Source of the DNA: a virus
Reading direction: 5' to 3' (one strand)
IMG/VR virus record: IMGVR_UViG_3300035533_000010
Coordinates: 1-59,990 of that record
Length of the DNA stretch: 59,990 nt
Numbering within the stretch: the first letter of the stretch is position 1; each line of letters opens with the position of its first letter. The notes under the pieces were generated by a model, which saw nothing but the letters and a program-made list of their open reading frames with translations, searched no databases and was not told where the DNA came from. Below, one piece after another: positions 3,929 through 47,780 of this stretch. The position numbers were made by a program, and so were the translations under genes.

Positions 3929-6900
3929 ATGGCATCATGGCAAACGGGATGGCCCGGAGACAAGCAAAAGCCGGCCGCTTCAAATTGGAAATTGGGGTGG
4001 CCGACAGACCAGTCAGAAATAGACCAGGGGCCGGATCTGAAAATAATTGATCCGCTCCAAGAAGGCGCAAAGGATGTTGTGCGGTCCGGGCTTGGTGCGG
4101 CTAAGATGCTGGCCGATACAGCCCAGGGGTCTATGGCGGGTAATTTGAAAAAGGCCGTTTATGGTGCGGCAGACGCTGATATTTTAAAGCCGGACCCAGA
4201 CTATAAAAGGTCTGAGGGGTGGCGGGGATACGTTGAAGATGTCGTAAGGATGTCCCCCCAGGTAGGCGCACAATTAGGGGTTGCGTTGACACCTGGAGGT
4301 CTGGTTGGCAGCACCGCCTTTATGGGTTCGCAGATCGCTGGTGGAACATACGAAACCCTAAGAGAGCAAGACGTTCCAGTTGTCAGAGCAATTCAGGCCA
4401 GCCTTGCCAACGCTGCCATGCAAGCCCCGCTCGAAGCCCTTTCTTTGAACAGGGCGCTGAAGCTTTGGAAACCAACCAAAAAAGGCATGGGTGCGGCACG
4501 GGATATTGTTGGGGCAATGGGAACTGAATTTGTCACAGAATGGGCCCAGAAATACCCTGAATTGGCGACAGAGATATGGGCAAAAACAGAAGGTGCGCCA
4601 GCAGAAGACCGGGTGAACCAGTTTGTTGAACGATTTGCAGAGACGACGAAAGGCGGAATGTATGAAGGTGCGGTAGCTGCACCGTTTGGCGGTCTTGTTC
4701 GTGGTGCGTCTCTTGTTACGCAAAGAGGCGCAGAAGGACCACAGGTAGCCGGGAAAAAAGACCCCGCCCAAACCGCCATCGACTCCATCAACGGAGATCC
4801 CGAAGCAACCGCAGACGTTGACCGGAAATTGGAACAGATAATCGCCGGGGATACCCTGACCAAAGAAACTACCGATACCAGGGAAAGACCCTTTGATCCA
4901 TCCACCTACCAGGAAGCAGGCCTTGAGGATTGGGCCATGGCAACCCGGATGAACCAACCGCCCTTGACCCAGGCGCAGCAAAACGATGCCCGTATGCGCC
5001 AAATAGAAGCCGCTGACGAAGCGACCGGCAGGCAAATGGAGCAATGGCAGGGCCGGACAGTGGAAGTCCCTGAAACCGACCAGACAGAGTTTGGCAGACA
5101 GCAGGAAGAAGAATCCTATTGGGGCCAGCAACGCCGGGAGATTGAAAAACAGCAGGATGTCCGCAGGGTCCAGAACCAGTTAAATCTTATCAATAAGAAA
5201 AAACGCCCGTCCCAGGATGATCGGAAGAAAATCCAGGCCCTTGAATCCAGACTTATCGAATTGGCCGGACCAAAGGATAGGGTGAGACTGGAAGCGGCAA
5301 AACGACAGCGACAGATCGACCGTGAAGGCCAACCCAAACCCGCTCCGCCATCAAGCGAAACGGCTTACGCATTGCAGCAAATGAAAGCCGAAGCCCTTGG
5401 CAGCGAAACCAAAGGCGTTACTCAGGCCAATATGTTTCAGGATGAAACCATTGGTTTTTCTGCAAGTTCCCCCAAATGGATGCGGGATCTTAACGCCAAT
5501 ATGCCCAAAGGTCAGCTTTTTTCCAGAAAAGAAATAGCCGGGCTGATTGACAAATACACCAGCGGCCAGAAGATGACATCGAAACAGTTCGACCGCTTTC
5601 AACTTCTCAAAAATGCCGCAGACACATACCGCAAGACTGAAGGCGGCTATGTGTCCCAGGACATGGCAAACGACCTTGAGAGAAAAGGGTATGAAGTTTA
5701 CGCCGGCGCAGAATTTGAAGCCGGGGAACTGAAGCCAGGTGATAAGTTTGTGGGAGAGGTTGAAGGTGTCCGGGATGAATGGACAGTGGGAGACACCAAC
5801 GCAGATGGCGTGTTGATGAAAGACGGTGTTTCTAAACGTGTGGTGCCGTTTGATACTGTGAAAGTGGATGGGTATAAGCCGTTTGCCGGACTGGATCAGC
5901 AGATGGATGAGGCGGTTAAGGTTGACAATAATCTTGAAAAAGTAACGGATGATTCTGTTAAGGTTGACAATAAATCAACTGACAAGGAATCCTTAGATGT
6001 TCCGAAACAGCTTTTCCATGGCACGGCAGCCAAGGATTTTGAAACGTTTGAAGGAATACCGTATCTCACCGATAACCAGGAAGAAGCCCGTGCATTTTCT
6101 GAGGGCGTACATTTAGGCGGGGGTACCGGTGGAGCAAAAAGAGTTTTGCCGGTATCTCATAAACTCAACAAGGTTAAAGACATTGCCGGCAAGGTAGACG
6201 AGGCATTGTTTTTGGGGGAAGATATAGACGATGTTATTGGTTCTGAACTGAAGCAGGCCAAAAAAAATGGATATGATGCGGTTACATTCATGCACCCGCC
6301 AAGTGTCGGGGACAATGATTTCAGGGTGTACGTTCCAACCAGCAACGAGCTTGTAAGTATTGAAAAGACCACCCCGCCCACTGAGGTTCAAAAGGACACT
6401 GAGCAGCAGACCCCCGGTGCATCTGCTGACGGGGTGGCAACAAATAGATTGACCGATTTTTTAAAACAAGAAATAGGGTTAAAGTATGAAAAACAGGGCG
6501 CGACATGGCAAGATGTTGCGGCTTCTTTTTCAAAATCAAAAGACCCGTTCCGCTTTTATGAAGAAAGCAAAGATGAATTTCACCCTGATTCACACAAGGC
6601 AATATTCAAAAGGGTGGTCAAACAAGCCCTTACCGACAATAAACCCGTACCGCCCGAAGTGCTGAAGGATTACCCGGATCTTGCCCCCGCCACCTCTGCC
6701 GCAAGCGCAACGACAGGGGGCGTTTCTTCTAAAGCACAACCCGACATCCTCCCCAAATCCGGCAAACCCTTCCCCAACAAAGGCACTGCAAAGATGGCCC
6801 TTATCCGTGCCAAGGCAAAGGATACCCATGAGGTTGTGGAAGTTGATGGGGGGTTTGTGGGGAGGGCGAAGGGTGATCTGAAATTTCAGACCAGTGCTAA

Positions 6901-9900
6901 CAACAAAAACCTTGCCATCGTTCATAATCTGACTGGTGCAAATCTGAACCATGCCCTAAAGATGGGTGGCCTGCCTGTCCCGAGTACCGCAGTTATCGAC
7001 GTTGAAAAGTCAGAGTTCGATTCTTTTGGTGATATCACCCTGATTGCAGACAAAGATCAACTTGGCCCAGGGAAGGCCGGGAATAAATATTTCAATGCCG
7101 ATGTTTATTCTCCAAGGTATCCATCTGTTCAATATAAGCTGACGGCAAAAGATGAAAGAAATCTGGTTGATTTCCTGAATGACGCCTACAAGACTATTCC
7201 GAAACCGGAAACCGGCAGGATTGAAATTGACCACCCCATGAGCGTCGTCGGCAGCATGGACGGCAAAAGCGTTCTGGACCGGTTCACATTAAAAACATCC
7301 CCACTGGTTGAATATGCCTTCCTTAAAGAAAAGGGCAGGCTGCCGAAGAATGTAGATTATTCCGTGTGGGAATCCCGGCAGGCCATGAGAAAAGCCGTTG
7401 ATAAATTCGGCAGGGATAAGTTTGACGCATGGGTTGATCAGAAAATCGATACCCTTGGTATCCAGGAAGAAGAAAAGATATTCGACGGGTTCACGTATTC
7501 TGGCAACAGAAAATACCTAAAGCATGATCTTGATACGGTTGTCCGTATTCTGAAAAGAGAGTTGCAGGATGGAGAGGGGTTCAATTACGGGGTTCCCTCC
7601 ATTCGCTCAAAAGTGGCCAGGCAGTTCAGGACTGTCAAGCAGATTCAGGATAGCAGGGATGACATCATTTCCAAACAGGACATGGAAAAGGTCAAGGATG
7701 AGGTCAATAAAGAGTTTGATGAATTGTTCAATGAAGTTCAGCCATATCTGAAACATGCCCCCAGGTTTGGCGCACAGGATAATTTTTCTGAACACATTAA
7801 AGAGGCCATAGACGACCGGAATTTTGATGGCGTGTTTGGAGAGAACAGCGATTACTATGAACCAGGTGTTGATGTTGACGCGATCCGTGAGTTTGTTGGC
7901 AAACTTCAAAACCTTCCCACCGAATACTTTGAAGGGAAAATTCAAAGGGCAGTTGGCCTTGATGAGTTCGCTTATGCTATTGTTCCTGCCGGCACACCGA
8001 TAGCCACAAGAAGGAAACTTAACCAGCAAGGCATTAAGGTTCTGACCTATAAAAAGGGGGACCAGGCAGACCGGGCAGAGAAAATCAGGCAGGCGACAAA
8101 GACGGGTGGGTTAAGATTCCAAACCACCTACCACGGCACCCCCCACATTTGGCCCCCGGAACCCGGCTTCCCCCATGGCCGGCCCAGGCTGGATAAGATA
8201 GGGACCGGGGAAGGGGCTGCGGCTTATGGGTGGGGATTTTATACTGCCGAGGCGGCAGAAATCGGAGTGTACTACCACGAAGGTTTGTCAAAATCTCCTA
8301 TCCTGGAAACTGACAAATTCGACGGCGATTTCGTTATCCGTAATGGGCAAGAATATCCAATATATGAAACAGGAAAAAGCGAGCCGTATATCCTAACAGG
8401 CGGCACCTACAAACTTGATATCCCGGACCAAGTGATTCCAAAATTGCTTGATTGGGATGCGCCGCTGAGTGAGCAGAGTGAGTATGTCAAAAAGAAGATT
8501 GAACCAACCGTCAAACGCTTTGAAAAAGATATGGAGGCCAGGAACCCGGTTAACAGGAAAATAGCGAATGGTCAAGACTTATATAATTGGGTTCGGGCAG
8601 AAGAAAGCGATAAGATAGGGTGGGCGTCTTCACAACAGGCCGCCTCCGAATATCTCGCCTCCATCGGCATTCCCGGCAACCGCTATCTGGACGGCATGAG
8701 CCGTAATAGACCAACACAAATAAAGCGAGAGATCGGAGAAATAAAAGATACAATCCAAAAGCTAAAAAAAGAAGCTAAAGGAATAAAGCAAGAGATTAAT
8801 AACAACAGAGCGAACAAGGGATTGACGAAAAGATTCTTCACATCTCGTCAAACGAAAATCGAAGAAATAGAATCTGAAATAAAATATCGAGAATCAAAGG
8901 TTAAAGATTTAAAATCCGAGACTGGTAATTCAAACTATGTGATATGGGACCAGAAAGTACTCGACCAAATAGCCCTGCTTGAGCGCAACGGCGAAAAACT
9001 GGATGCAATCAGGAAGTTTCAGACTGGACAAACCCACGCCCAGTCTGGCAAACTAACCAAAAAGGAGAATACAAATGGCAGGACTCTGGCTGGAAAACGG
9101 GCTGCACCTTCAGATAAGCAACAGCGAAGCGAAAAGATTAGCTTCTCGGATGCAGAAAGACGGTTCAGCAACCTATTCGGATACCAAGATCCGGATGGTA
9201 CTACCCAACTCGTCAGAAGCATTACCAAAACCAATAGACAGGTCCAAAAGGTTGCGGAAGCATTAGGGCTTCAGGTCTTTTTCTTCAAGTCTGATCATCC
9301 CAAACTTTCCACAGCCAACGGGTTCACCAACAAGGGCGAGCGTGTTGTTTATATCAACGTCAAGGCCGATGATCCCCTGTTACCGATTGTCGGGCATGAG
9401 TTTATCCATCAGCTTGAGCGCAATCATCCGGATCTGTACGACTTCCTCCTGAACACTCTCAGGGTATCCGACAAAAACTTTGAAAGGTATGTTGCAACCC
9501 TTGTCAAATCCAGAGAAGGTCTGGACTTCGGGGAGTTGTCAGAAGCCAAGAAAGAAGAATTTTACGAAGAGTTTATTGGCGATTTTACCTTTGATCAGTT
9601 CCACAAAACTGAGTTTTGGCAGAAGCTTGTAAACCAGAACCGGACCATGACAGAGCGCATCATTGATGTTCTGCAATCCATCCTTGATAAAATCAGAAGC
9701 ATCTACCCCCGGGCAGAGATGTTTGTATCCAACCTGAGAGAATCGCAAGATGCTTTGGTTTCTGTTTTGGATGAGGTGATGGAGAGGGAGTTTGCGCCGG
9801 CACCGGGGATAAACAGCAAGGCATTCCGTGACTGGTTCGGTGACAGCAAGGTGGTGAATGAAGATGGTAAGCCGTTGGTGGTTTATCACGGCCGCTCCGA

Positions 9901-18706: not shown

Positions 18707-18879
18707 TTGAACCACAGACTGGTACACCAAAATCAAACGAGTACCGAAAACAGCTGGTTGATCAAGCAATTGAGAACCTGAAACAAAAGCTGATCAAAGA
18801 AGCTAAACCATTGCCGCCGGAGTTCAGCCGGACGGTGAATAAACATTTTTGGGAGTTGATGTCAACCACCTCGGCCTAA
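18691..18879 (+). CDS. Hypothetical protein
   Basis: 62-aa ORF with a 16-nt overlap to the upstream gene. Its stop codon lies in the loop of a small hairpin (18871-18886). Confidence 0.5.
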   Translation: MAENMIEPQTGTPKSNEYRKQLVDQAIENLKQKLIKEAKPLPPEFSRTVNKHFWELMSTTSA

Positions 18880-19148
18880 AGGCCGGAGCTTGTAAAAGGC
18901 TCCATGGTTGACCAGGGAAATGTTCAACGTTTTATGGCAAAGACAAAAAAGGAGAACATTAAAAGTTGCATAGAGAGCTAAAGACCAACGGCGGGATGCT
19001 TCCTCAGTCCCGCCCTCTTGAAGCCCGGGTTGCAGAAAACCTACAGGGGTATGGACGAAACGGGTCCGGGCAGAATGCCGCTGTGCAACAATCCCGAGGG
19101 GAGAGTTCAACCGATGCCAGGGTTGAACCGTCACCCGCCGTGTGCCCT
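18880..19148 (+). ncRNA. Omega-RNA (HEARO-like) candidate for IscB
   Basis: Hairpins seen: GGAGC/GCTCC at 18885-18903, GGCGGGA/TCCCGCC at 18990-19014, GGAC/GTCC at 19053-19067, and GTTCAACC/GGTTGAAC at 19105-19128. A second CCCGCC at 19134-19139 could form a pseudoknot. IscB guide RNAs are encoded directly upstream of the ORF. Confidence 0.55.
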
Positions 19149-20543
19149 ATGGGTGCTGTAAATGCGGAGAACGGCGTAAGCCGTGTTTTTGTACTCGACA
19201 AGAACGGTGATCCGTTGATGCCGTGCCATCCGGCCAGGGCAAGAAAGTTTCTGGCACGGGGCCGGGCCCGGGTTCACCAGATGTTTCCATTTACCATTAG
19301 ACTCGTTGACCGGATCCGGGAGAACAGTGTTGTGCAGCCGGTTAATGTTAAAATTGATCCCGGAGCCAAAACAACCGGCATGGCCGTGGTGAGACAGGAT
19401 AGTGGACATGTCCATATCATCCATCTGTCAGAATTAACCCATCGGGGCGCTGCCATCCGGAAGAAACTGGATCAAAGATCCAATTATCGGAGAAGGCGAA
19501 GGACCGCAAACCTCTGGCACAGAAAGCCCCGGTTCGATAACAGAACCCGGCCCAAAGGGTGGCTTCCGCCAAGTCTCAAATCACGGGTGGATAACACTTT
19601 ATCCTGGGTGAAAAAGTATCAAAGGATCTGCCCGGTTACAGGCATTGTCCTGGAACGGGTCCGGTTCGATACTCAGAAGCTGCAGAACCCGGATATTTCA
19701 GGGATCGAGTATCAGCAAGGCACACTGTTCGGGTATGAGGTAAAAGAATACCTGTTGGAACGATATGGCAGAAAATGTGCCTACTGCAATGGCTTGAGCA
19801 AGGATCCGGTTTTGGAGATTGAGCATTTTATCCCACGCAATCCCTCAAAAGGGGATAAGGGATCAAACCGGATCAGTAACCTGGCCATTGCCTGTAAAAC
19901 CTGTAATCAGGAATCAAAAAAGAACCTGCAGCCGGCAGATTGGATCCGCCTTTTATCCAGGTCACAAAAAAAGATAGATCAGGTCCGGGCCCAAAATGCT
20001 ACCCGATTTCTGGAAGGGAAAAGGCCCTCCCTTGCATCAACCGCAGCGGTAAACGCCACCAGGAACGCTATCTTTTTTGAACTCAGGGACCTGGGCCTGC
20101 CGGTAGAATGCTCAACCGGTGGCAGGACCAAATACAACCGGTCCCGGCTGGATATACCCAAAACCCATTGTCTGGATGCTGCCTGCACCGGCTATGTGGA
20201 TTCGGTATCCGGCTGGAAACAAAACGTGTTCCTGATAAAGGCCATGGGCCGAGGCAGTTATCAAAGAACCCGTGTGGACAAATACGGTTTTCCCCGGGGA
20301 TACCTGATGGATCAGAAAACGGTAAAGGGTTTTGCCACCGGGGATATGGTTAAAGCGATCGTTCCTACTGGTAAGAAGAAAGGAACGTATATTGGCAGAG
20401 TGGCTGTCCGGAAAACCGGCAGCTTTAATATTCAAACCAGGGAAGCTGTGGTCCAGGGTGTATCCTGGAAACATTGCAAACTCATATCCCGTCAGAACGG
20501 GTATAGTTTTCAGTGTGCAAGCCAAGTTTCCTCCCCGGCCTGA
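19149..20543 (+). CDS. iscB: IscB RNA-guided endonuclease (PLMP, split RuvC, HNH, C-terminal TAM-interaction-like domain)
   Basis: Motifs in order: VFVLDKNGDPLMPCHPARARKFL; VKIDPGAKTTGMAVV; NYRRRRRTANLWHRKPRF; IVLERVRFDTQ; CAYCNG..LEIEHFIPRN..NLAIACKTCNQ; THCLDAACTG; GFATGDMVKAIVP..GRVAVRKTGSFNI. I prefer ATG 19149 because the track start 18966 would translate the structured leader. Confidence 0.85.
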   Translation: MGAVNAENGVSRVFVLDKNGDPLMPCHPARARKFLARGRARVHQMFPFTIRLVDRIRENSVVQPVNVKIDPGAKTTGMAVVRQDSGHVHIIHLSELTHRGAAIRKKLDQRSNYRRRRRTANLWHRKPRFDNRTRPKGWLPPSLKSRVDNTLSWVKKYQRICPVTGIVLERVRFDTQKLQNPDISGIEYQQGTLFGYEVKEYLLERYGRKCAYCNGLSKDPVLEIEHFIPRNPSKGDKGSNRISNLAIACKTCNQESKKNLQPADWIRLLSRSQKKIDQVRAQNATRFLEGKRPSLASTAAVNATRNAIFFELRDLGLPVECSTGGRTKYNRSRLDIPKTHCLDAACTGYVDSVSGWKQNVFLIKAMGRGSYQRTRVDKYGFPRGYLMDQKTVKGFATGDMVKAIVPTGKKKGTYIGRVAVRKTGSFNIQTREAVVQGVSWKHCKLISRQNGYSFQCASQVSSPA

Positions 20544-30224: not shown

Positions 30225-30842
30225 ATGAACCTATACATAAAGCTGGTTGACATCCGCAAATCAGTAGAATATTTGCAGAAAACCGAGCGAGGCAACCAGG
30301 GAGCAATGTACGTTGACCCGGCTGTTTTGGTCCAAAAGATTCGGGCTAAGATGGACGATGCTGGAATCCTTCTTGTGCCGTCACTGTCTGACACCACGGT
30401 TGACAGCATGCCTGACCCGACAAAGAACAATCCAAACGCCACGAGTTTTTTGTTTAGGTCCAAAATGCTTTATACTTTTATAGACGCAGAATCCGGGGAC
30501 AAGCTGGACGTGCCCTGGTTCATGACCGGGAAGCATTTGCAGGACCCGGCGATGGCTGGTGGCGCTGCTTTGACGTATTTTGAACGGTACTTTCTTCTGA
30601 AGTTCTTCCAGATCCCGACATCGAAAGATGACCCTGAACATTTTCAGGCGAAAACAGCTACGGCGATATCCGGGGATCAGGTCAAAGAAATGGCAGGGCT
30701 TATCGAGCGCACAGGTAGCGATTTAAAAGCGTTTCTGGCGTATGCGAAGGTAGATGCCTTAGAAAACATCCATCCGCTCAATTATGGTGCCTTAAAGTCC
30801 AAGCTGCTGGCAAAGGAACAGGCCATGAAGGGAGGATCATAA
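30225..30842 (+). CDS. erf: ERF-family single-strand annealing protein
   Basis: LYIKLVDIRKSVEYLQK...MYVDPAVLVQKIRAKMDDAGILLVP...AMAGGAALTYFERYFLLKFFQIPTSKDDPE matches the ERF core (A.G.A.TY..RY.L). Confidence 0.7.
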   Translation: MNLYIKLVDIRKSVEYLQKTERGNQGAMYVDPAVLVQKIRAKMDDAGILLVPSLSDTTVDSMPDPTKNNPNATSFLFRSKMLYTFIDAESGDKLDVPWFMTGKHLQDPAMAGGAALTYFERYFLLKFFQIPTSKDDPEHFQAKTATAISGDQVKEMAGLIERTGSDLKAFLAYAKVDALENIHPLNYGALKSKLLAKEQAMKGGS

Positions 30843-31381
30843 TGAACGAGACGATTACTCAAGAATTTATTAAGTCGATACTCAAGTATGATCCGCAAAC
30901 AGGCGTTTTCTCGTGGCGTAAAGACAGAGGCAGCGCAAAAAAGGGAGATGTGGCTGGAACAAAGCACCACCCGCACGGGTATGTTTATATCAAGATAAAT
31001 AAAAAAAACTACAAGGCGGCAAGGTTGGCATGGCTGTATATGGAGGGGTATTTCCCTGAACACTGTGTGGACCATATAGATAGGGATAAATCCAACGACA
31101 AGTGGATTAACTTAAGGCACGTTACTCAATCCTGTAATCTTAAAAACACTTCAAAAAGATCAAGCAACATATCAGGCATTGTTGGTGTTAACTGGGACAA
31201 GGCCAAAAGAAAGTGGCACGCGCAAATTACAGTTGATTATAAAAACCTCTGGATCGGGCGGTTTTCGCAAAAAATTGATGCCGCCCGTGCTCGCTGGGAA
31301 GCAGAAAAAAAATATAACTTTCCAGAGTGCTGTTCGAAATCAAGCGCATACTTATATCTCAAAGAGGTAGGTGCGTTATGA
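30842..31381 (+). CDS. HNH-AP2 homing endonuclease, paralog 1
   Basis: LAWLYMEGYFPEHCVDHIDRDKSNDKWINLRHVTQSCNLKN (HNH_3) plus SGIVGVNWDKAKRKWHAQITVDYKNLWIGRF..AARARWEAEKKY (AP2). It is wedged between erf and exo with 1-nt and 4-nt overlaps. Confidence 0.8.
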   Translation: MNETITQEFIKSILKYDPQTGVFSWRKDRGSAKKGDVAGTKHHPHGYVYIKINKKNYKAARLAWLYMEGYFPEHCVDHIDRDKSNDKWINLRHVTQSCNLKNTSKRSSNISGIVGVNWDKAKRKWHAQITVDYKNLWIGRFSQKIDAARARWEAEKKYNFPECCSKSSAYLYLKEVGAL

Positions 31382-33383: not shown

Positions 33384-33527
33384 ATGAAAGAAGCAGTTGT
33401 GTACAAATCAACGTCTGGATATTGGGTAGCAGAATGTGTCAAGACTGGATTGAAGATAGGTGGCTATCATGATTCTGAGCTGGATGCGTATAAGGCGGCT
33501 AACAGAAGCGGATATCTCGTAAGATGA
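33384..33527 (+). CDS. Small hypothetical protein (47 aa)
   Basis: AAAGGAGG lies 6 nt upstream of ATG 33384. MKEAVVYKSTSGYWVAECVKTGLKIGGYHDSELDAYKAANRSGYLVR. Confidence 0.5.
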   Translation: MKEAVVYKSTSGYWVAECVKTGLKIGGYHDSELDAYKAANRSGYLVR

Positions 33528-33841
33528 TCCCAAAAACCAAACCCATCCGCGATCCCGGATACCTTGCCTGGCTGCGCACCCTGCCATGTGCCTTGTGCGG
33601 ACACACTCCGTGTGATGCAGCACACCAACGGCTTTTAGGCGGTGGCGTCGGATCAAAACCAGGCGATGACCTGGCGATACCGCTGTGCTGGAAGTGCCAC
33701 GATTCTGAGCATAGGCGGGGCGTTTTGACGACATGGAACGAGAAACAACCAAAGGAGTGCGGGTGGACCCGGGAAGACCTGCGGGAGCATTTGCGGGGGT
33801 TGTGCAAGGGGTTGAGGGGGCGGTATATGAGGGGCAAATAA
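33524..33841 (+). CDS. DUF968 / P1 Ref-like HNH-family zinc protein (tentative)
   Basis: YLAWLRTLPCALCGHTPCDAAHQR...KPGDDLAIPLCWKCHDSEHRRG follows the C..C...H...PLC..CH...H pattern. Confidence 0.55.
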   Translation: MIPKTKPIRDPGYLAWLRTLPCALCGHTPCDAAHQRLLGGGVGSKPGDDLAIPLCWKCHDSEHRRGVLTTWNEKQPKECGWTREDLREHLRGLCKGLRGRYMRGK

Positions 33842-34282: not shown

Positions 34283-34298
34283 CATGATTGATTTTTTG

Positions 34299-34327
34299 TT
34301 GACAGGGGTTTTTGGGTTTGGTATGGT
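34299..34327 (+). promoter_or_regulatory. Promoter candidate TTGACA-17-TATGGT
   Basis: TTGACA at 34299-34304 and TATGGT at 34322-34327, directly upstream of the structured region. Confidence 0.4.
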
Positions 34328-34333
34328 GATTAT

Positions 34334-34529
34334 ACACAGGATCAGGCGTCGGTTGGCACCCGGCACAAAACCAACCTGTGTGAAAGGGGAGATTAAGTAT
34401 GGTGGAAAGACCTTTTAAAAACAAAATAAACCCGGTTTTTACCTGGGCGCACCCTCTCCCATTGGGGTGCTGCCAAACACTCGTTTTCACCATACGGGGT
34501 GCGTCCAGGTATTTGCCGGGTTTTTTGTT
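34334..34529 (+). ncRNA. Structured RNA candidate (sRNA or attenuator leader) upstream of an HNH gene
   Basis: The 5' hairpin is 34334-34381. A long helix pairs AAACCCGG/CCGGGTTT (34428-35 with 34516-23) and 14 bp of 34441-54 with 34497-510, including one G.U, then a T-run. A pseudoknot candidate pairs GTATGGTG (34397-404) with CACCATAC (34488-95). An alternative pairing uses GGGTGC at 34465-70. Confidence 0.4.
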
Positions 34530-34535
34530 TGAAAG

Positions 34536-35096
34536 GTGCCTGCCGTGACAAAGAGAAAATCACTATCCAAAAAAATTCGGTTTAACGTATTCAAAAGAGA
34601 CAACTTCAGATGCGCTTATTGCGGAGAATCTCCGCCTAAAGTGGTGCTTGAGGTTGACCATATCACACCTGTATCAAAAGGCGGAGACAACGGTATAAAC
34701 AACCTTTTGACGGCTTGTTTTGACTGCAACAGGGGTAAAACAAACGAAAAGCTTGACACCATACCGCAAAACCTTACAAAGAAGCTTGAGGTTTTAAGAG
34801 AAAAAGAAACGCAGCTATCCGAATATAATAAGTTTTTATCAAAAGAAAAAACCAGGATTAACAGACAAATCAAATCATTGGAAAATATATTCAGATCAAA
34901 GTTTCCAGAAGAGTCTTTTTATGAAGGGTTTAAGCAAAACACCATAAAGGTTTACTTAAAATATCTTACAATTCACGATTTAAAAGATGCGATGTTAATG
35001 GCAACAGACAGGACAACTGTGCCTGGACAATGCCTTAATTACTTTCGGAGCGTTTATGGATCTAAAATATATAGGCCACCACGTGTGGGGTCATAA
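34536..35096 (+). CDS. HNH endonuclease (McrA-like core) with C-terminal extension
   Basis: FRCAYCGESPPKVVLEVDHITPVSKGGDNGINNLLTACFDCNRGK. It starts with GTG (34536 or 34545). AT-rich. Confidence 0.75.
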   Translation: MPAVTKRKSLSKKIRFNVFKRDNFRCAYCGESPPKVVLEVDHITPVSKGGDNGINNLLTACFDCNRGKTNEKLDTIPQNLTKKLEVLREKETQLSEYNKFLSKEKTRINRQIKSLENIFRSKFPEESFYEGFKQNTIKVYLKYLTIHDLKDAMLMATDRTTVPGQCLNYFRSVYGSKIYRPPRVGS

Positions 35097-35101
35097 CAAA
35101 G

Positions 35102-35581
35102 ATGGTGATACCAAACGGCTTCATTCTGCTTGCAAAGAAAACGCTGACATCGAAAACTTACAGGATGGCACCATTTTATCGGGAAATCTGGATACACCTG
35201 CTCATGTCTGTCGGGTATAAAGACCAGGGAAAAGCCACTGGGAGGGGGCAAATTTATACCACATATGACAAAATAGCAGAAGGATTGCATTGGTTTGAAA
35301 ACCGAAAAAAATGTCAATATTCACACCGCCAGATTAAAAAGGCACTTGAGTTTTTCAGGTCAGAGGGAATGGTGATCACGGAAAAGCAGCCGAGGGGCGT
35401 TATTATAACTATCTGTAAATACAATGAATACCAGGATTGGAGAAATTACTTGAAGAACTTGGGCCAACACAATGGGCAAGAAAATGCAATAATACCGGAC
35501 GGTTATAAGAACAAAAATCAGAACTTGGGCCAACAACCCTTGAACTTGGGCCAACAAAAATTCTTGCAAGGGCTTGAATAA
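35102..35581 (+). CDS. Winged-helix protein, replication-initiator-like, with iterons in its own 3' end
   Basis: YTTYDKIAEGLHWFENRKKCQYSHRQIKKALEFFRSEGMVITEKQPRG is wHTH-like. The C-terminal NLGQ repeats are encoded by the iterons. Confidence 0.55.
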   Translation: MVIPNGFILLAKKTLTSKTYRMAPFYREIWIHLLMSVGYKDQGKATGRGQIYTTYDKIAEGLHWFENRKKCQYSHRQIKKALEFFRSEGMVITEKQPRGVIITICKYNEYQDWRNYLKNLGQHNGQENAIIPDGYKNKNQNLGQQPLNLGQQKFLQGLE

Positions 35582-35619
35582 ATGGGCTTTTTTATCGTTT
35601 CATTTTCTAACTTGGGCCA
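35455..35619 (+). repeat. Iteron array: 3x GAACTTGGGCCAACA plus 1x AACTTGGGCCA
   Basis: Copies at 35455-35469, 35521-35535 and 35542-35556, with a partial copy at 35609-35619. A very AT-rich 170-nt stretch follows. Confidence 0.8.
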
Positions 35620-35729
35620 TTCATTCTTTAATATTACACCAGTGTATATAGGTACTATATAGTTAATAGGGACTTTGCCATGACTAACTTTGAAAATCAC
35701 CGCAAACAATTTTTAGAATCATTCCCTGG

Positions 35730-35758
35730 TTGCAAAGTGATGTTGGTATATATAAAAT
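35730..35758 (+). promoter_or_regulatory. Promoter candidate TTGCAA-17-TAAAAT
   Basis: Hexamers at 35730-35735 and 35753-35758. A second candidate, TTGACA-17-CATATT, is at 35761-35789. Confidence 0.4.
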
Positions 35759-35794
35759 GCTTGACAATGTAAAACAAAAAAGGCATATTAAATT

Positions 35795-35977
35795 ATGGAA
35801 AAAAAGCTTAATAAGCAATTTGGTATCAGGATTTGTGAAAACCAAATTAAAAACCTCGAAGAGATAGCTTGCGCTGAACAAAGAAGCGTAGCAGCTGTCA
35901 TAAGGATGATGATTGATGAAGGAATCGAAAAGAAAAAAGCTGACTCAGGGAAGGTTAAAAGAACTTCTGAATTATGA
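35795..35977 (+). CDS. Ribbon-helix-helix DNA-binding protein
   Basis: QFGIRICENQIKNLEEIACAEQRSVAAVIRMMIDEG has the same layout as the RHH at 32020. Confidence 0.55.
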   Translation: MEKKLNKQFGIRICENQIKNLEEIACAEQRSVAAVIRMMIDEGIEKKKADSGKVKRTSEL

Positions 35978-36467
35978 TCCTGAGACTGGTGTTTTTACAT
36001 GGTTGGAATCAAGGAAGGCCTGTAAAAAAGGAGAAAGAGCCGGAAATATTGGGCCGATAGGGTACGAAAGGATACAAGTATTTAGAAAGCAATACTTATC
36101 GCATAGATTGGCTTGGTTTTATATGGAAGGTTTTTTGCCAACCGGGATAGAAATAGATCATATAAATAAAAATAGGGCGGATAATAGATGGAAAAATCTA
36201 AGGCTTGTTTCAAGACAATGCAATGCTAAAAATTGTAATGTATCAAAATGGAATAAGAGCGGCATAACTGGTGTAAGTTTTGATTCATCAAGAAAAAAAT
36301 GGATGGTTCAAGCCATGGTAAATGGAGTAAAAATATCTGGTGGTAGGTTTGATGAAAAGGTTGATGCCGCATTAAAACGATTTGAAATAGAAAAAGAATA
36401 TAATTTCCCAGACTGCCAAACAACATCTTCAGCTTATTTATATTTAAAAGATAAAGGGAAGATATAA
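35913..36467 (+). CDS. HNH-AP2 homing endonuclease, paralog 2
   Basis: LAWFYMEGFLPTGIEIDHINKNRADNRWKNLRLVSRQCNAKN plus SGITGVSFDSSRKKWMVQAMVNG. The N-terminal LNYDPETGVFTW and C-terminal SSAYLYLK match paralog 1. It overlaps the RHH 3' end by 65 nt. Confidence 0.8.
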   Translation: MMKESKRKKLTQGRLKELLNYDPETGVFTWLESRKACKKGERAGNIGPIGYERIQVFRKQYLSHRLAWFYMEGFLPTGIEIDHINKNRADNRWKNLRLVSRQCNAKNCNVSKWNKSGITGVSFDSSRKKWMVQAMVNGVKISGGRFDEKVDAALKRFEIEKEYNFPDCQTTSSAYLYLKDKGKI

Positions 36468-44195: not shown

Positions 44196-44384
44196 ATGCC
44201 GCAGCGGACCCGAAAATCATTGAAACCCACACCTGGCAAGGAGATCACGCCGGAGATGATTACAATTATTCCCACCCCTGAGCCGAAATATCAGATGCCG
44301 GAGAACTACGTCAGGCCGAAGGGCCGGCGGATGTTTAATCAGGCTCCGGGGTGCTTGAGGGTGCCGAGGCACTCAGGTGGATGA
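44196..44384 (+). CDS. Doubtful 62-aa Pro/Lys/Arg-rich ORF in the short transcript
   Basis: No good SD at ATG 44196. An internal ATG follows AAGGAG by 12 nt. The composition faintly recalls the N-termini of P27-type small terminases. Confidence 0.3.
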   Translation: MPQRTRKSLKPTPGKEITPEMITIIPTPEPKYQMPENYVRPKGRRMFNQAPGCLRVPRHSGG

Positions 44385-44421
44385 TGAATAACACAACCCA
44401 CAATAGGTTAGCTACCGAACA

Positions 44422-44457
44422 GCCAAAGCCTTATGGCCTTTGTGGGTTTTCTTTTTT
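44422..44457 (+). terminator. Rho-independent terminator candidate
   Basis: An imperfect hairpin CCAAAGCC-ttat-GGCCTTTGTGG is followed by GTTTTCTTTTTT. Confidence 0.45.
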
Positions 44458-44482
44458 AAGGCAAGCACTAAAGGCGGTGTTT

Positions 44483-45031
44483 ATGAAAGAAGAATTAACA
44501 CAGGATAGGTTAAAATCTATTTTGGATTACAACCCCAAGACAGGCGTGTTCCTTTGGAAAAAAACAGGGAACAATCAGTTTGTGAAAAAAGGCAGGACAG
44601 CAGGATGGGACATGGGCGATGGATACCGCCGCGTCACTGTACTTGGTGGCACCTATTACGCGCACAGGTTGGCTTGGCTTTACATGCACGGTTATTTCCC
44701 AGAACACGGGATAGATCATATTAATAGAGACAAGAAAGACAACAGAATTAAAAATCTGCGTGTTGTCTCACAACAATGCAATGTAAGAAATACAGGGGTT
44801 AGATGTAATAATAGATCTGGGATAACCGGAGTGTTATGGGCCAAGCAACAAAAAAAATGGCAGGCCAAAATAGCGGTATCCGGGAAAACCATACACCTTG
44901 GATATCATAAAGATAAGATAGAAGCGGCCAAAGCGAGACACCTCGGCGAAATAAAATATGGGTTCAAAAACTGTTACACAAGCAGCCCTGCATTTAAGTA
45001 TTTGCAAGCCCAGGGCTACGCAGGGGGATGA
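44483..45031 (+). CDS. HNH-AP2 homing endonuclease, paralog 3
   Basis: I prefer ATG 44483. LDYNPKTGVFLW; LAWLYMHGYFPEHGIDHINRDKKDNRIKNLRVVSQQCNVRN; SGITGVLWAKQQKKWQAKIAVSGKTIHLGY..EAAKAR. Confidence 0.8.
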   Translation: MKEELTQDRLKSILDYNPKTGVFLWKKTGNNQFVKKGRTAGWDMGDGYRRVTVLGGTYYAHRLAWLYMHGYFPEHGIDHINRDKKDNRIKNLRVVSQQCNVRNTGVRCNNRSGITGVLWAKQQKKWQAKIAVSGKTIHLGYHKDKIEAAKARHLGEIKYGFKNCYTSSPAFKYLQAQGYAGG

Positions 45032-45945: not shown

Positions 45946-46323
45946 ATGACGGCAAAAGAGCGACATCGGCGCAAGATACTTGAATTCTTGAGCGATCCGG
46001 AGAACGATTTCCCCCCTCGCCAGGAATACGCCAAGCTTTGCCGCATCACAATCCAGACCATGTATCAGCACTTCACGCCGGCTGAACTGCAAACCATCGA
46101 GAACGAAGCTTACGAAGTTAGAAAGAAAAATTCAACTAAACAGCGGGCCGAGTTGCTGGCCATGCTTTACACTGAAGGTATGGCCGGCAAGGTCCGGGCG
46201 ATCCGGGAATATCTTGATAGAACAGAAGGCAAGGTGCCGGATAAACAGGAAAGATCAGGCCCGGGTGGCGGGGCAATAGAACACAAGTGGCGGATTGAGG
46301 TTGTGGAGGCCCAAAAATGCTAA
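45946..46323 (+). CDS. terS: Small terminase subunit candidate (HTH-like N-terminus)
   Basis: 125 aa immediately upstream of and overlapping terL. EYAKLCRITIQTMYQHF is HTH-like. The call rests mainly on position. Confidence 0.55.
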   Translation: MTAKERHRRKILEFLSDPENDFPPRQEYAKLCRITIQTMYQHFTPAELQTIENEAYEVRKKNSTKQRAELLAMLYTEGMAGKVRAIREYLDRTEGKVPDKQERSGPGGGAIEHKWRIEVVEAQKC

Positions 46324-47780
46324 AGATGCAGATCCCTAAAAAGCTGCTTCCGATTCTCCAAAAGCCAAAGCGCATCAAGATCGCTATCGGGGGCCGGGGT
46401 TCTGCCAAGTCTACCACGTTTGCAGATGTCCTGGCGATGAAGGCCCAGACCGAGGGCGCAAAGGTGGGATGCTTCCGGGAATATCAAAACAGCATCGAAG
46501 ATTCGGTGCATGCGCTCCTGGCCGCCGAAATAGAGCGGATTAAAATTCCAGGTTTCTCAATAGGCAAGGCCACGATTGATCACCAGTCCGGAGGCAAGTT
46601 CCGGTTCAAGGGTCTGGCCCGGTCCATCGATGCTGTAAAGTCCATGCACGGTTTCAAATATTTCTGGGTCGAAGAGGCGCAATTTCTTTCCAAAGACTCC
46701 ATCAAAATTCTGACCCCCACGGTCCGGGAGGAAGATTCAGAAATATGGTTTTCCGGCAACCCGATGTCATCAGCCGATCCCTTTTCCCAGCGGTTCATTG
46801 TCCCCTATCTCACGGAATTGAAGCGGGACGGATACTATGAAGATGACATGCACCTGATTATATTCGTCAATTACAACGATAATCCATGGTTCCCGGATGT
46901 CCTGGAACAAGAACGCAGGCACGATTTCAAGACCCTGGATCGCGCGCTGTATGATCATGTTTGGGAAGGTGCATTTAATGACAGCGTGGAAAACAGCATC
47001 ATCCTGGCTGAATGGTTTGATGCCTGCGTTGACGCCCATGAAAAACTGGGATTCAAACCCCTGGGAGCAAAAATCGTTTCACACGATCCTTCAGACCTGG
47101 GGCCGGATGATAAGGGTTTGTGCCTGCGCCATGGTTCCGTGATCCTGGATGCCATGGCCGAAAAATACGGGGACGTCAACGAGGGGTGCGATTGGGCCAC
47201 GGGCTACGCAGCGGACAATAACGCAGACTGGTTCACATGGGATGGCGATGGCCTTGGCGTTTCATTGCGTCGGCAAATCCAGGAGGCTTTTGAGGGCACG
47301 AAAACTGAAGTTGAGATGTTCCGGGGGTCGAACAGTACGGAGAACCCCGACTCTGTGTACCAGGAGCCGGGGAAGGTTCTCCCGGATGATGCGAAACGCA
47401 GGACAAACAGAGAGACATTCAGAAACCTGAGATCCCAAAGATACTGGATGCTTCGGGACCGGGTGTTCAATACATACCAGGCCGTGACAAAGAATCAATA
47501 CATCGATCCGGATCAAATGATTTCCTTTTCTTCCAAAATCCAGGATATCCAAAAGCTTCGCTCTGAATTGTGCCGTATCCCCCGCAAACCAAACAGCAGG
47601 GGGCTGATCCAGATTATGACGAAAGATGAAATGAAACGCCTGCTGAAAATCGAATCCCCCAATATCGCGGACGCAGTGATGATGTCTTTGATGACACCGA
47701 AAAATCCGGTTGAGATGCAGGCGGACGTGAACAGATATATATCCCGAAACAAACACATTAGAAGGGGCTTACGAGTATGA
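46317..47780 (+). CDS. terL: Large terminase subunit (PBSX/Terminase_3-like)
   Basis: Walker A is IAIGGRGSAKST and Walker B is KYFWVEEAQ. The C-terminal nuclease half contains VSHDPSDLGPDDKG. Confidence 0.9.
   Translation: MLKMQIPKKLLPILQKPKRIKIAIGGRGSAKSTTFADVLAMKAQTEGAKVGCFREYQNSIEDSVHALLAAEIERIKIPGFSIGKATIDHQSGGKFRFKGLARSIDAVKSMHGFKYFWVEEAQFLSKDSIKILTPTVREEDSEIWFSGNPMSSADPFSQRFIVPYLTELKRDGYYEDDMHLIIFVNYNDNPWFPDVLEQERRHDFKTLDRALYDHVWEGAFNDSVENSIILAEWFDACVDAHEKLGFKPLGAKIVSHDPSDLGPDDKGLCLRHGSVILDAMAEKYGDVNEGCDWATGYAADNNADWFTWDGDGLGVSLRRQIQEAFEGTKTEVEMFRGSNSTENPDSVYQEPGKVLPDDAKRRTNRETFRNLRSQRYWMLRDRVFNTYQAVTKNQYIDPDQMISFSSKIQDIQKLRSELCRIPRKPNSRGLIQIMTKDEMKRLLKIESPNIADAVMMSLMTPKNPVEMQADVNRYISRNKHIRRGLRV

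Follow-up and report, generated by a model that had tools for sequence, protein, structure and literature searches.

The window analysed here, a 59,990-nt stretch of viral DNA (IMG/VR record IMGVR_UViG_3300035533_000010), carries a leader-like element followed by a gene for a 183-aa HNH endonuclease, a gene for a DnaD-like replisome organizer and a set of four iterons (Table 1). A RepB-type primase is among the products of the neighbouring replication genes. The upstream gene ends just 16 nt before the −35 box of the element; a 76-aa protein encoded upstream had no match in Pfam or PHROGs. Elsewhere in the window, at 19113–20540, lies a true IscB gene (RRXRR and HNH domains) accompanied by a HEARO RNA. 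The iterons and the AT-rich spacer that follows them (35456–35900) form the region of lowest G+C content in the window and are likely to be the replication origin; the leader promoter lies about 1.1 kb before them.

Table 1. Features of the leader element and of the genes and repeats downstream (window coordinates).
Feature	Position	Strand	Description and basis
Sigma-70-type promoter	34299–34327	+	−35 TTGACA 34299–34304, 17-nt spacer, −10 TATGGT 34322–34327, TG-extended
5′-terminal hairpin	34333–34382	+	Closing stem UACACAGG with CCUGUGUG; MFE and centroid folds
Shine-Dalgarno-like AAAGGGGAG	34383–34391	+	7 nt before ATG 34399; sequence reading
Helix A, 5′ strand GTATGGTGGAAA	34397–34408	+	Includes upstream-ORF start ATG 34399–34401
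Upstream ORF, 49 codons	34399–34548	+	Starts in helix A, traverses terminator hairpin
A-rich linker L1, single-stranded	34409–34427	+	Unpaired in folds
Bipartite hairpin B/B′	34428–34523	+	24 bp; −51.4 kcal/mol for the hairpin alone
Outer stem of B/B′	34428–34435 with 34516–34523		AAACCCGG with CCGGGTTT
Inner stem of B/B′	34440–34455 with 34496–34511		16 bp including G.U
Apical region of B/B′	34456–34495		Loop of 40–41 nt
Helix A, 3′ strand A′ UUUUCACCAUAC	34484–34495	+	In the loop, abuts B′ (34496)
U-run TTTTTTGTTT	34521–34530	+	Gives the hairpin intrinsic-terminator form
HNH endonuclease	34545–35096	+	Cas9/IscB-type HNH_4 core and helical C-terminal domain; Pfam, PHROGs, family alignment
DnaD-like replisome organizer	35102–35581	+	PHROG 2514
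Four iterons AACTTGGGCCA	35456–35619	+	Spacings 66, 21, 66; AT-rich spacer follows

The HNH gene, the first after the leader, had originally been read from GTG 34536; GTG 34545 is now the most likely start, because a 183-aa database protein is 99% identical to that form and homologues align from there. An exact-protein look-up of the 186-aa reading returned nothing. The near-identical protein (P0001) comes from a 1077-nt contig with identical upstream sequence, which is hence uninformative about the element. Matches to PDB sequences and folds were confined to the HNH domain, whose core is closest to the HNH domains of IscB and Cas9; a fold search with a model of the HNH protein gave no significant match for its helical C-terminal domain. 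Our impression is that its motif YFCGICW may resemble the DnaD C-terminal motif.

The original prediction described a discrete structured RNA running from a promoter to a terminator; our analysis supports this, and every element it named is present at the coordinates given. The promoter lies where it had been placed, agrees with the consensus at 10 of 12 positions and is the sole + strand site of that quality between 33500 and 35500 in a promoter scan; transcription would start at about 34334. The 5′ hairpin proposed at 34334–34381 reappears in the folds, with ACACAGG (34334–34340) paired to CCTGTGT (34375–34381), and is a peculiarity of the window, missing from the related contig L049 and from other loci, where helix A forms the 5′ end. 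The long bipartite helix is present at the predicted position and ends in a T-run (34521–34530), its outer and inner stems having a joint duplex energy of −48.6 kcal/mol. Folded as the + strand, positions 34330–34530 reach −75.4 kcal/mol (z = −3.5), a stability matched by none of 200 shuffles.

A pairing between the loop and an upstream segment (CACCATAC at 34488 with GTATGGTG at 34397) had been put forward as a pseudoknot or anti-terminator. The pairing exists and extends to 12 bp (GTATGGTGGAAA with TTTTCACCATAC, 34397–34408 with 34484–34495, −14.4 kcal/mol); it was equalled in 26 of 2000 loop shuffles, and the comparative evidence set out below backs it. By a score for interleaved helices, the region of the element ranks first among all 243-nt windows of the 60 kb (67, against 50 for the next). 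A classical antiterminator does not fit, since helix A pairs with the loop and not with the terminator strand. For the further suggestion that GGGTGC (34465) competes for CGCACCC (34448), both motifs are present, but the competing pairing found no comparative support. In hairpin B/B′ a G+C-rich stem passes directly into a U-run, as in an intrinsic terminator, but the loop of 40–41 nt is not the short one (3–8 nt) of such terminators, and a simple terminator scan missed the hairpin because of its 41-nt loop.

That the element belongs to no described RNA family, as originally supposed, is borne out by our searches. Rfam 15 covariance models, applied to the window with E-values up to 10, produced a single match, a chance mir-1289 hairpin (19 bits against a threshold of 66); at gathering thresholds they matched nothing upstream of the genes at 20 related loci, and the element is not a member of the HEARO, riboswitch, put-like or c4-type phage RNA families in Rfam 15. 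The literature that we searched does not describe any RNA of this kind. The element and 10 kb around it showed no DNA similarity to GenBank phages, a search of IMG/VR through the flanking 76-aa and DnaD-like proteins yielded no close relatives, and nhmmer found neither a match of the element among 47 loci nor similarity among their upstream regions. Cultured phages with a homologous HNH gene (the lambdoid E. coli phage Louie, Vibrio D65 and Synechococcus Ssp-JY42) have no gap and no element at this position, so there is no applicable experimental literature. The riboswitch reading of the original prediction finds no support: a riboswitch has conserved ligand-binding core nucleotides, and no nucleotide is conserved between instances, even where the HNH proteins are 62–80% identical, as judged by nhmmer and by comparison of the window with L049 and of locus L059 with L065. 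What is conserved within these two pairs is the promoter and the helices, not the nucleotides of loops and junctions.

The layout nonetheless recurs in many unrelated phages, without any sequence similarity: promoter, 5′ segment A, A-rich linker, stem B, A′-bearing loop, B′, U-run and gene start. Equivalent A/A′ pairings and B hairpins occur at many loci, with A′ adjoining B′ as the recurrent geometry; at L053 and L074 the geometry suggests that the two helices exclude each other, and elsewhere they are able to coexist. Among gaps of at least 120 nt upstream of homologous HNH genes (n = 40), 55% had an interleaved-helix score of at least 45, or 70% if an A′–B′ distance of up to 12 nt was allowed, compared with 5–6% of other intergenic regions from the same loci (n = 99, 120–300 nt; Mann–Whitney p = 2e-10 and 5e-14) and 3–4% of random windows (n = 294). 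In another test the MFE fold defined hairpin B, and RNAduplex was run on the loop against 130 nt upstream; only 4 of 53 loci came out at p ≤ 0.05, but long, sloppy duplexes and wrong hairpin boundaries made the result uninformative and it was disregarded. At many loci near-consensus sigma-70 promoters or Bacteroidota-type TAnnTTTG motifs end 3–15 nt before helix A, which is therefore the 5′ end of the transcript. A T-rich run precedes the gene start at 31 of 41 curated loci; roughly one instance in four has no clear U-run, the closest relative, L049, among them. The gene always starts 10–35 nt after the element, with no space for another promoter. When the window is compared with L049, promoter and spacer form the most conserved stretch and both flanks diverge.

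These results bear on another explanation of the locus, an ordinary junction at which the hairpin terminates an upstream early operon and a paired 5′ end stabilises the mRNA, with nothing sensed and A:A′ a by-product of selection for stability. Stabilisation of mRNAs by 5′ stem-loops is well established, and with the upstream gene ending 16 nt before the −35 box the hairpin is the first terminator that upstream transcription meets. Yet promoter followed by terminator, as found in the window and at most loci, is the reverse of the normal order; the interleaved geometry with A′ abutting B′ is enriched 10-fold over intergenic regions that also hold terminators and promoters; and compensatory changes maintain it. 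We regard an ordinary junction as rather unlikely.

The compensatory changes emerged from the comparison of homologous loci that the original prediction had called for, in which one pair, L059 and L065, could be aligned and supplies the covariation evidence. Over its 33 base pairs, 97% are paired, with five compensatory double changes distributed over helices A and B and an inner hairpin, and zero in slid controls. Recurrence and compensatory change together indicate that the interleaved order A, B, A′, B′ of an H-type pseudoknot has been maintained in evolution. An IMG/VR scan for a conserved 15-mer downstream of the L059/L065 hairpin found only those two phages. In ten contigs with an identical L059 HNH protein the RNA is invariant, which adds no further covariation. 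The counterparts of linker L1 at other loci are A-rich without being conserved in sequence, and the linker is hypervariable even between close relatives.

Pairs of the G.U type outnumber A.C by 77:26 (p = 2.5e-7), and the selected molecule is therefore the sense-strand RNA. The same excess is expected of RNA and not of DNA repeats, and thus counts against a DNA-level element, in which the interleaved inverted repeats would be where replication starts, where initiation on a single strand occurs or what a nuclease recognises. Long inverted repeats able to extrude as cruciforms, next to replication genes that include a RepB-type primase, would suit such a role, but the placement of the promoter makes helix A a transcript 5′ end, a typical origin with iterons and AT-rich sequence lies elsewhere (35456–35900), and the repeat sequences are wholly different between phages with similar proteins. 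We give a DNA-level role very little credence.

The original prediction saw in the element a leader that serves the HNH gene and the replication genes after it, a view that we find supported in part: what the leader accompanies is the head of the replication module and not the HNH gene as such. The gene after HNH belongs to one homologous organizer family at 84 of 91 loci, and the leader stands directly before organizer genes that lack an HNH gene, clearly so at L198, L207 and L218 and plausibly at L258 and L241. We accordingly assign it to the start of that module and not to the nuclease, a position that is fixed across phyla. Between L116 and L117/L120 sequence identity starts at the 5′ edge of the promoter; between L109 and L110 it starts some 40 nt before the promoter motif. 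On this reading the neighbouring Cas9-like HNH gene is a passenger, not a partner, of the RNA.

An RNA that acts as cofactor or guide of the downstream Cas9/IscB-type HNH nuclease, in the manner of omega-RNA with IscB or IshB, is accordingly close to refuted, although the HNH core is nearest to those of IscB and Cas9, the family has about 180 aa, like IshB (PMC11610941), and a structured RNA immediately upstream is what omega-RNA would lead one to expect. Fewer than 60 nt lie upstream of 36 of the 84 family members, most of them without the element, and the RNA architecture also occurs before organizer genes without any HNH. The 5′ end is base-paired, with no free guide. The protein has neither a PLMP nor an RRXRR domain, the locus lacks a transposon context, HEARO and other models do not match, and a search of the window and of 1 Mb of related loci gave no target complementarity.

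In the window an upstream ORF with a good Shine-Dalgarno sequence and an ATG start crosses the whole hairpin, and its stop codon TGA (34546–34548) overlaps the HNH start GTG (34545–34547) as GTGA. This arrangement recurs at L049, L046, L059, L065, L073, L074, L086, L098 and L103. Structure-spanning ORFs of at least 34 codons were found at 22 of 43 loci, compared with 16–18% in shuffles (p ~1e-7), and stop/start overlaps at 10 of 43, compared with 4%. The frequency of upstream ORFs did not differ from that of small ORFs in other phage gaps, which lowers our confidence in a leader peptide; nor was the upstream ORF associated with presence of the U-run (p = 0.47), and regulatory codon runs are absent from the peptides. 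The leader-peptide mechanism raised in the original prediction stays plausible through this ORF, but not through the 44-aa ORF (34284–34418) first named, whose start lies ahead of the −35 box and which lacks a ribosome-binding site. The upstream-ORF peptides resemble translated terminator sequence, with GFF motifs that derive from GGGUUUUUU.

That the conserved feature is instead a small protein gene (49 aa, 34399–34548), translationally coupled to HNH, with the RNA structure secondary, seems very unlikely. The enrichment of ORFs over shuffles would agree with it, as would the ribosome-binding site, the stop/start overlap and the annotation of such ORFs by gene callers in related contigs (a 48-aa ORF in 9 of 10 contigs of the L059 type). 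Against it, no peptide conservation is shared between loci: even L059 and L065, whose HNH proteins are 80% identical, have unrelated peptides, part of the homologous DNA being read in different frames. The ORF is present at about half of the loci and absent from several clear structured instances, and a neighbouring ORF of the region, when tested, had no Pfam or PHROG match.

The results show the anatomy of the element, the conservation of its structure, the strand of its RNA and its linkage to the replication module. We propose, with moderate confidence, that it is a cis-acting leader or attenuator cassette heading a phage operon for DNA replication, with genes for HNH nuclease, DnaD-like replisome organizer, primase and helicase, and that it most likely controls the amount of transcription entering the replication genes. 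Termination, control of read-through and a role for the upstream ORF are what we infer for its operation. The strong host-type promoter would fire at about 34334, and the nascent RNA would fold into an end-protected pseudoknot, helix A pairing with A′ in the 3′ part of the B/B′ loop, while hairpin B/B′ and the U-run would act in the form of an intrinsic terminator. Since there is no room for a promoter between hairpin and HNH start, a transcript that expresses HNH has to read through the hairpin whether it comes from the leader promoter or from the upstream operon. The hairpin could in this way set the level of transcription into the replication genes and towards the iteron origin about 1 kb downstream, and termination would leave a stable RNA of about 190 nt. 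Translation of the 49-codon upstream ORF would probably aid read-through in the window: a ribosome that loads early would open both A:A′ and B:B′ and pass on to the HNH start; if none loads, the start codon of the truncated, stop-less transcript would stay concealed in the pseudoknot. Intrinsic terminators in or just after ORFs are suppressed by ribosomes, and the pyrBI attenuator sits within its 135-bp leader ORF (PMC4824070; PMC5021804).

The terminated RNA might also be the product in its own right, an independent trans-acting small RNA of about 190 nt, whose place ahead of the replication genes would be incidental or a matter of co-regulation alone, and which would reach host or phage targets through the single-stranded A-rich linker or the loops. 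We think this unlikely. Stable small RNAs typically have what is seen here, namely a strong promoter, a 3′ end in terminator form and a paired 5′ end, and the linker is hypervariable in close relatives, as a specificity segment might be; but when the window and 1 Mb of related loci were searched for targets complementary to the linker or to the entire RNA, only chance-level matches came up. About a quarter of instances, without a U-run, would release no discrete RNA; with the gene start within 10–35 nt and no room for a promoter, an effect in cis is unavoidable; and from phylum to phylum the element keeps its place at the start of the replication module.

Returning to a cis-acting leader, a bolder form of this reading, which we advance tentatively and would not expect to hold, makes it a widespread, uncatalogued RNA switch whose choice between termination and read-through decides when phage DNA replication may begin. 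If so, what the 5′ segment senses would be either the early loading of a ribosome or a factor from phage or host; termination would yield a stable, translationally silent RNA of about 190 nt, and read-through would yield organizer, primase and helicase together with transcription towards the iteron origin, with the same logic in phages of Bacteroidota and Proteobacteria hosts. To our knowledge, the timing and dosing of replication genes in tailed phages have been detailed only for a few model phages, and a leader recurring in dozens of uncultivated phage lineages would represent a general control point. As the leader is defined by architecture and not by sequence, homology searches are blind to it. 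It would provide a clean natural example of a terminator loop tied to the 5′ end of its transcript, and a candidate family to add to catalogues of structured RNAs.

Several known systems share parts of this design. Like the element, the HEARO or omega-RNA of IscB (RF02033) is a structured RNA directly before an HNH-containing nuclease gene; membership of that family was rejected on the lack of a covariance-model match and of RuvC and PLMP domains and on the occurrence of the RNA without HNH, and the element also departs from the OMEGA systems of IshB and IscB in that the 183-aa protein has only HNH domains and the 5′ end of the RNA is paired. Canonical Rho-independent terminators have the same G+C-rich stem leading directly into a U-run, but not the two-part 24-bp stem, the 40-nt loop paired with an upstream segment or the instances without a U-run. 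A trp-type attenuator would have runs of regulatory codons and an antiterminator paired with the 5′ strand of the terminator, whereas here codon runs are absent and helix A pairs with the loop and not with B or B′.

Phage lambda likewise places terminators before gene blocks whose expression needs read-through, at nutR–tR1 before cII–O–P and at PR′–6S RNA–tR′ with Q. The terminated RNA from PR′ is short, at 194 nt. In cultured lambdoid relatives the homologous HNH gene sits exactly at the cII/O junction, and in one subfamily a CII-like gene precedes the leader; no homologue of N, Q, nut or qut was detected with Pfam or PHROGs. Unlike the lambda leaders, the pseudoknot of the element includes the terminator itself, and unlike the Q-dependent PR′–tR′ late leader, it stands before replication genes and not late genes.

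The rep attenuators of plasmids pT181, pIP501 and pAMbeta1 differ in having the 5′ segment pair with the 5′ strand of the terminator (the pre-emptor/terminator scheme), where that of the element pairs with the loop, and in their antisense promoter, of which a promoter scan found none at the element. In common with it they place a terminator-bearing structured leader directly before a replication-initiator gene, with rapid sequence drift and the structure kept.

The pyrBI leader (pyrL) of Escherichia coli departs from the element in its UTP-sensitive pause logic, which is not evident here, in the genes controlled, which here are phage replication genes, and in its leader ORF, which the element has in about half of instances; we know of no pyrBI counterpart to the pseudoknot between 5′ segment and loop. 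In both, a promoter-proximal leader of about 150–190 nt has an ORF of about 45–50 codons that contains an intrinsic terminator and ends at the structural gene, and in the window this leader ORF has its own ribosome-binding site, the terminator inside it and its end at the HNH gene. In pyrBI, a ribosome trailing the polymerase suppresses the terminator (PMC4824070).

Directly upstream of the HNH gene lies a conserved, sense-strand, pseudoknotted RNA of terminator form, which starts at a strong promoter and ends immediately upstream of the gene that opens the replication module; its structure is well supported and, judged from sequence, a function as a cis-acting leader is plausible. In this RNA a 5′ segment (A) pairs with a segment (A′) in the loop of a long hairpin (B/B′). 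Inspection of 34299–34530 recovered every part that the original prediction had placed there (see table); the HNH start was replaced, most likely by GTG 34545, because a 99%-identical database protein is 183 aa long, and the 44-aa ORF named earlier (34284–34418) opens 5′ of the −35 box. The + strand folds at −75.4 kcal/mol (z = −3.5, equalled in 0/200 shuffles) and the minus strand more weakly (−68.3 kcal/mol, z = −2.7). The loop pairing alone was equalled in 26/2000 shuffles, and on an interleaved-helix score the element was the top interval of the entire 60 kb. We also observed GTATGGTG twice, in the promoter −10 region (34321–34328) and in the core of helix A (34397–34404), so that the loop segment CACCATAC is complementary to both; this may be coincidence, helix A of the window's closest relative, locus L049, being unrelated to the promoter.

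Features of the element and its downstream neighbourhood in the window
Feature	Position	Strand	Details
Promoter		+	TTGACA-17-TATGGT with TG extension; best + site within 2 kb
5′ hairpin	34333–34382		
Loop pairing (A/A′)	34484–34495 with 34397–34408		12 bp
Bipartite hairpin (B/B′)	34428–34435 with 34516–34523; 34440–34455 with 34496–34511		
T-run	34521–34530		
HNH nuclease	34545–35096	+	First gene 3′ of element
DnaD-like replisome organizer	35102–35581		Second gene 3′ of element
HNH_3/AP2 protein			Third gene 3′ of element
RepB-type primase with PriCT			Fourth gene 3′ of element
SF2 helicase			Fifth gene 3′ of element
Four iterons AACTTGGGCCA	35456–35619		Spacings 66, 21, 66; 3′ end of DnaD-like organizer gene
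AT-rich spacer	35582–35912		After iterons; within lowest-G+C region of window

The window represents a phage-like genome of ~59.6 kb; besides a replication block it encodes structural proteins and a large terminase. The genes 5′ of the element are NinB-like, DUF968 and small ones. Its ends (1–508 and 59539–59990) repeat one another (183–391 versus 59782–59990, 94% identical), with further internal repeats of 264 nt and 39 nt. Either the contig (~59.6 kb) is circularly permuted or terminally redundant, or a repeat-rich gene crosses its ends. A single ORF of 3695 codons (3929–15016, +) is unusually large for a 60-kb phage genome, which is also rich in putative nucleases of homing or accessory type: at least six HNH-type genes (30842–31381, 33524–33841, 34545–35096, 35913–36467, 44351–45031 and 19113–20540) span different families (HNH_3/AP2, DUF968, HNH_4-like, IscB).

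A scan of the window against Rfam returned only a HEARO RNA (18861–19109) and an int-alpA RNA (44396–44461), with nothing relevant in the element interval up to E = 10 and no match ahead of the homologous genes when 20 related loci were scanned, in keeping with the original view that no described family sits at such a locus. Comparison with GenBank phages returned no similar DNA. The HEARO/omega-RNA (Rfam RF02033) is full-length (105 bits) and precedes a 476-aa ORF whose product carries RRXRR and HNH domains (18861–20543, +), forming an IscB-type OMEGA nuclease with its guide RNA inside a phage genome. The int-alpA match (+, 49.6 bits), ~1.3 kb upstream of the large terminase gene (46317–47780), overlaps the 5′ part of ORF 44351–45031, which encodes an HNH_3 product and whose true start may lie after the RNA.

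The HNH family is large and well conserved (1649 database proteins at E ≤ 1e−10, alignment A2), and 129 loci encoding it were retrieved; L-numbers denote loci encoding this protein or the replisome organizer. Upstream of the gene these loci have no sequence in common with the window, L049 being its only relative in this comparison, yet many of them fold, just 5′ of the start codon, into a long, large-looped hairpin with a U-run. Stem enumeration identified a recurring order of A, A-rich linker, B, loop, A′ and, within a few nucleotides, B′ in the window and in L049, L001, L005, L009, L015, L021, L022, L023, L053, L062, L065, L073, L074, L075, L076, L089, L091, L095, L098, L103, L115 and others. 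An automated geometry score reached ≥45 in 32% of 84 non-redundant upstream regions versus 3–4% of 294 random windows. For the 40 upstream regions with a gap ≥120 nt the figure was 55%, or 70% with ≤12 nt permitted between A′ and B′, compared with 5–6% of 99 other intergenic regions (120–300 nt) taken from these loci and the window (p = 2e−10 and 5e−14, respectively). Gaps were <60 nt in 36/84 loci, most of them without the element, and cluster at 120–200 nt in the remainder.

Between the window and L049 (HNH 62% identical), promoter and spacer are almost perfectly kept and nothing is alignable in the RNA body, where L049 has a 9-bp A:A′ helix (GGCTGACCC with GGGTCAGCC) abutting a 25-bp hairpin. 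As a separate observation on the protein, the window copy (35040–35096) has LNYFRSVYGSKIY in place of the nearly invariant C-terminal family motif A.KYFCGICWNKIK and so lacks the conserved Cys, Gly, Cys and Trp. The motif is retained in the 62%-identical relative, and the HNH protein of the window may have diverged in function or be decaying.

Among the helices, G·U outnumbered A·C oppositions, which were equally permitted, by 77 to 26 (p = 2.5e−7), fitting sense-strand RNA and not DNA repeats. The homologous loci L059 and L065 (HNH proteins 80% identical) were the only alignable pair showing differences; on a hand-specified pseudoknot of 33 pairs, 97% of cells pair. Compensatory double changes affect five pairs, two each in A and B and one in an inner GNRA hairpin, and were absent from every slid control. 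The A–B linker is entirely different between the two loci.

A near-consensus sigma-70 promoter ends 5–15 nt before helix A in several loci (TTGACA-17-TATAAT in L074, TTGACA-17-TAAAAT in L053, and also L065, L073, L089 and L124), and a Bacteroidota-type TAnnTTTG motif ends 3–20 nt before it in L001, L009, L021, L023, L075, L098 and L103; helix A therefore forms the transcript 5′ end, except in the window, where the extra 5′ hairpin occupies it. A T-rich run (≥6/8) precedes the gene start in 31/41 curated loci, and the 10–35 nt between hairpin and start codon leave no space for a further promoter. The iterons and AT-rich spacer are the probable replication origin, so the element is not; an origin or other DNA site is contradicted by the G·U bias, the promoter placement and this separate iteron origin.

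Identity between L116 and L117/L120 starts at the promoter 5′ edge (about 2375–2500), and between L109 and L110 some 40 nt 5′ of the promoter motif. The promoter, the RNA and the HNH gene therefore move as a single module. The HNH genes of L116 and L117/L120 are nearly identical and the sequence upstream of their leader promoters is unrelated; both sets of boundaries mark mosaic recombination near the module start. The gene 3′ of HNH belongs to one homologous replisome-organizer family in 84/91 loci. When 80 loci were retrieved by organizer alone (66 non-redundant), 62/66 had no HNH upstream, and among those with a gap ≥100 nt the promoter-A-B-A′-B′-U-run architecture directly precedes the organizer clearly in L198 (18-bp helix A), L207 and L218 and plausibly in L258 and L241. 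It is thus the head of the replication module to which the RNA belongs; the HNH gene, lying between leader and organizer, is an optional passenger. In cultured relatives the homologous HNH sits at the lambda cII/O junction with no gap, and the leader of the L059 subfamily is preceded by a CII-like gene (Phage_CP76). One reading makes the RNA a guide or cofactor of the nuclease: the HNH core most resembles the HNH domains of IscB and Cas9, and IshB-like proteins of ~180 aa exist (PMC11610941). We reject this reading: nearly half of the HNH family lacks the RNA, the RNA also occurs without HNH, the protein has no PLMP domain and the RNA no free guide, and a target search of the window and 1 Mb of related loci found none.

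The window has AAAGGGGAG 7 nt ahead of ATG 34399; this start codon, inside helix A, opens a 49-codon ORF crossing the whole hairpin and U-run, its TGA overlapping the HNH GTG (GTGA). ORFs of 34–49 codons overlap the gene start in the same layout in L049, L046, L059, L065, L073, L074, L086, L098 and L103. Structure-spanning ORFs of ≥34 codons occur in 22/43 loci versus 16–18% in dinucleotide or block shuffles (p ~1e−7), and stop/start overlaps in 10/43 versus 4%; in 18/33 curated loci an ORF reaching the gene start begins at an ATG located −25 to +30 nt from helix A, and gene callers annotate the ORF in 9/10 L059-type contigs. The ORF does not define the motif, because its peptides are unrelated across loci (L059 versus L065 included), about half of the clear instances lack it, its frequency is the same in other phage gaps, which hide real small genes, and it shows no association with the U-run. 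A small protein gene is contradicted by the absence of any peptide conservation. On sequence grounds, the ORF is likely a regulatory feature of the window and a subset of loci; the leader-peptide mechanism once attached to the 44-aa ORF is plausible in the window through the 49-codon ORF instead. The otherwise unrelated leaders of L021 (321–334) and L073 (2377–2390) have the 14-mer AAATGAAACAAGAA in common, immediately 3′ of helix A and at the ORF start, both peptides beginning MKQE; it may be a preferred unstructured initiation region or chance (E about 0.04–0.07).

All transcription into the replication module would have to pass the hairpin, so the element would be a cis-acting attenuator or insulator; transcripts that terminate there would yield a stable RNA whose ends are paired. 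The short loops of L053 and L074 cannot accommodate both helices together; elsewhere helices A and B can stack. The riboswitch originally entertained was rejected for lack of conserved nucleotides, and a classical antiterminator because helix A pairs with the loop, not a terminator strand. For the window we propose a pyrBI-type, translation-coupled read-through. Terminated transcripts have no stop codon, and A′, paired with the region around the start codon, would also prevent ribosomes from loading on them. Read-through would also send transcription toward the iteron origin 1.1 kb downstream; lambda PR likewise directs transcription toward ori-lambda.

Structured leaders that carry a terminator ahead of an operon are a known kind of element; Rfam 15 contains neither this architecture nor its fixed place heading phage replication modules across host phyla, and a literature search found no paper describing such an RNA. 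In pyrBI, the terminator lies inside a 135-bp leader ORF (PMC4824070), and ribosomes suppress terminators translated through or adjoining their stop site (PMC4824070; PMC5021804); the window's terminator-form hairpin also lies inside its leader ORF.
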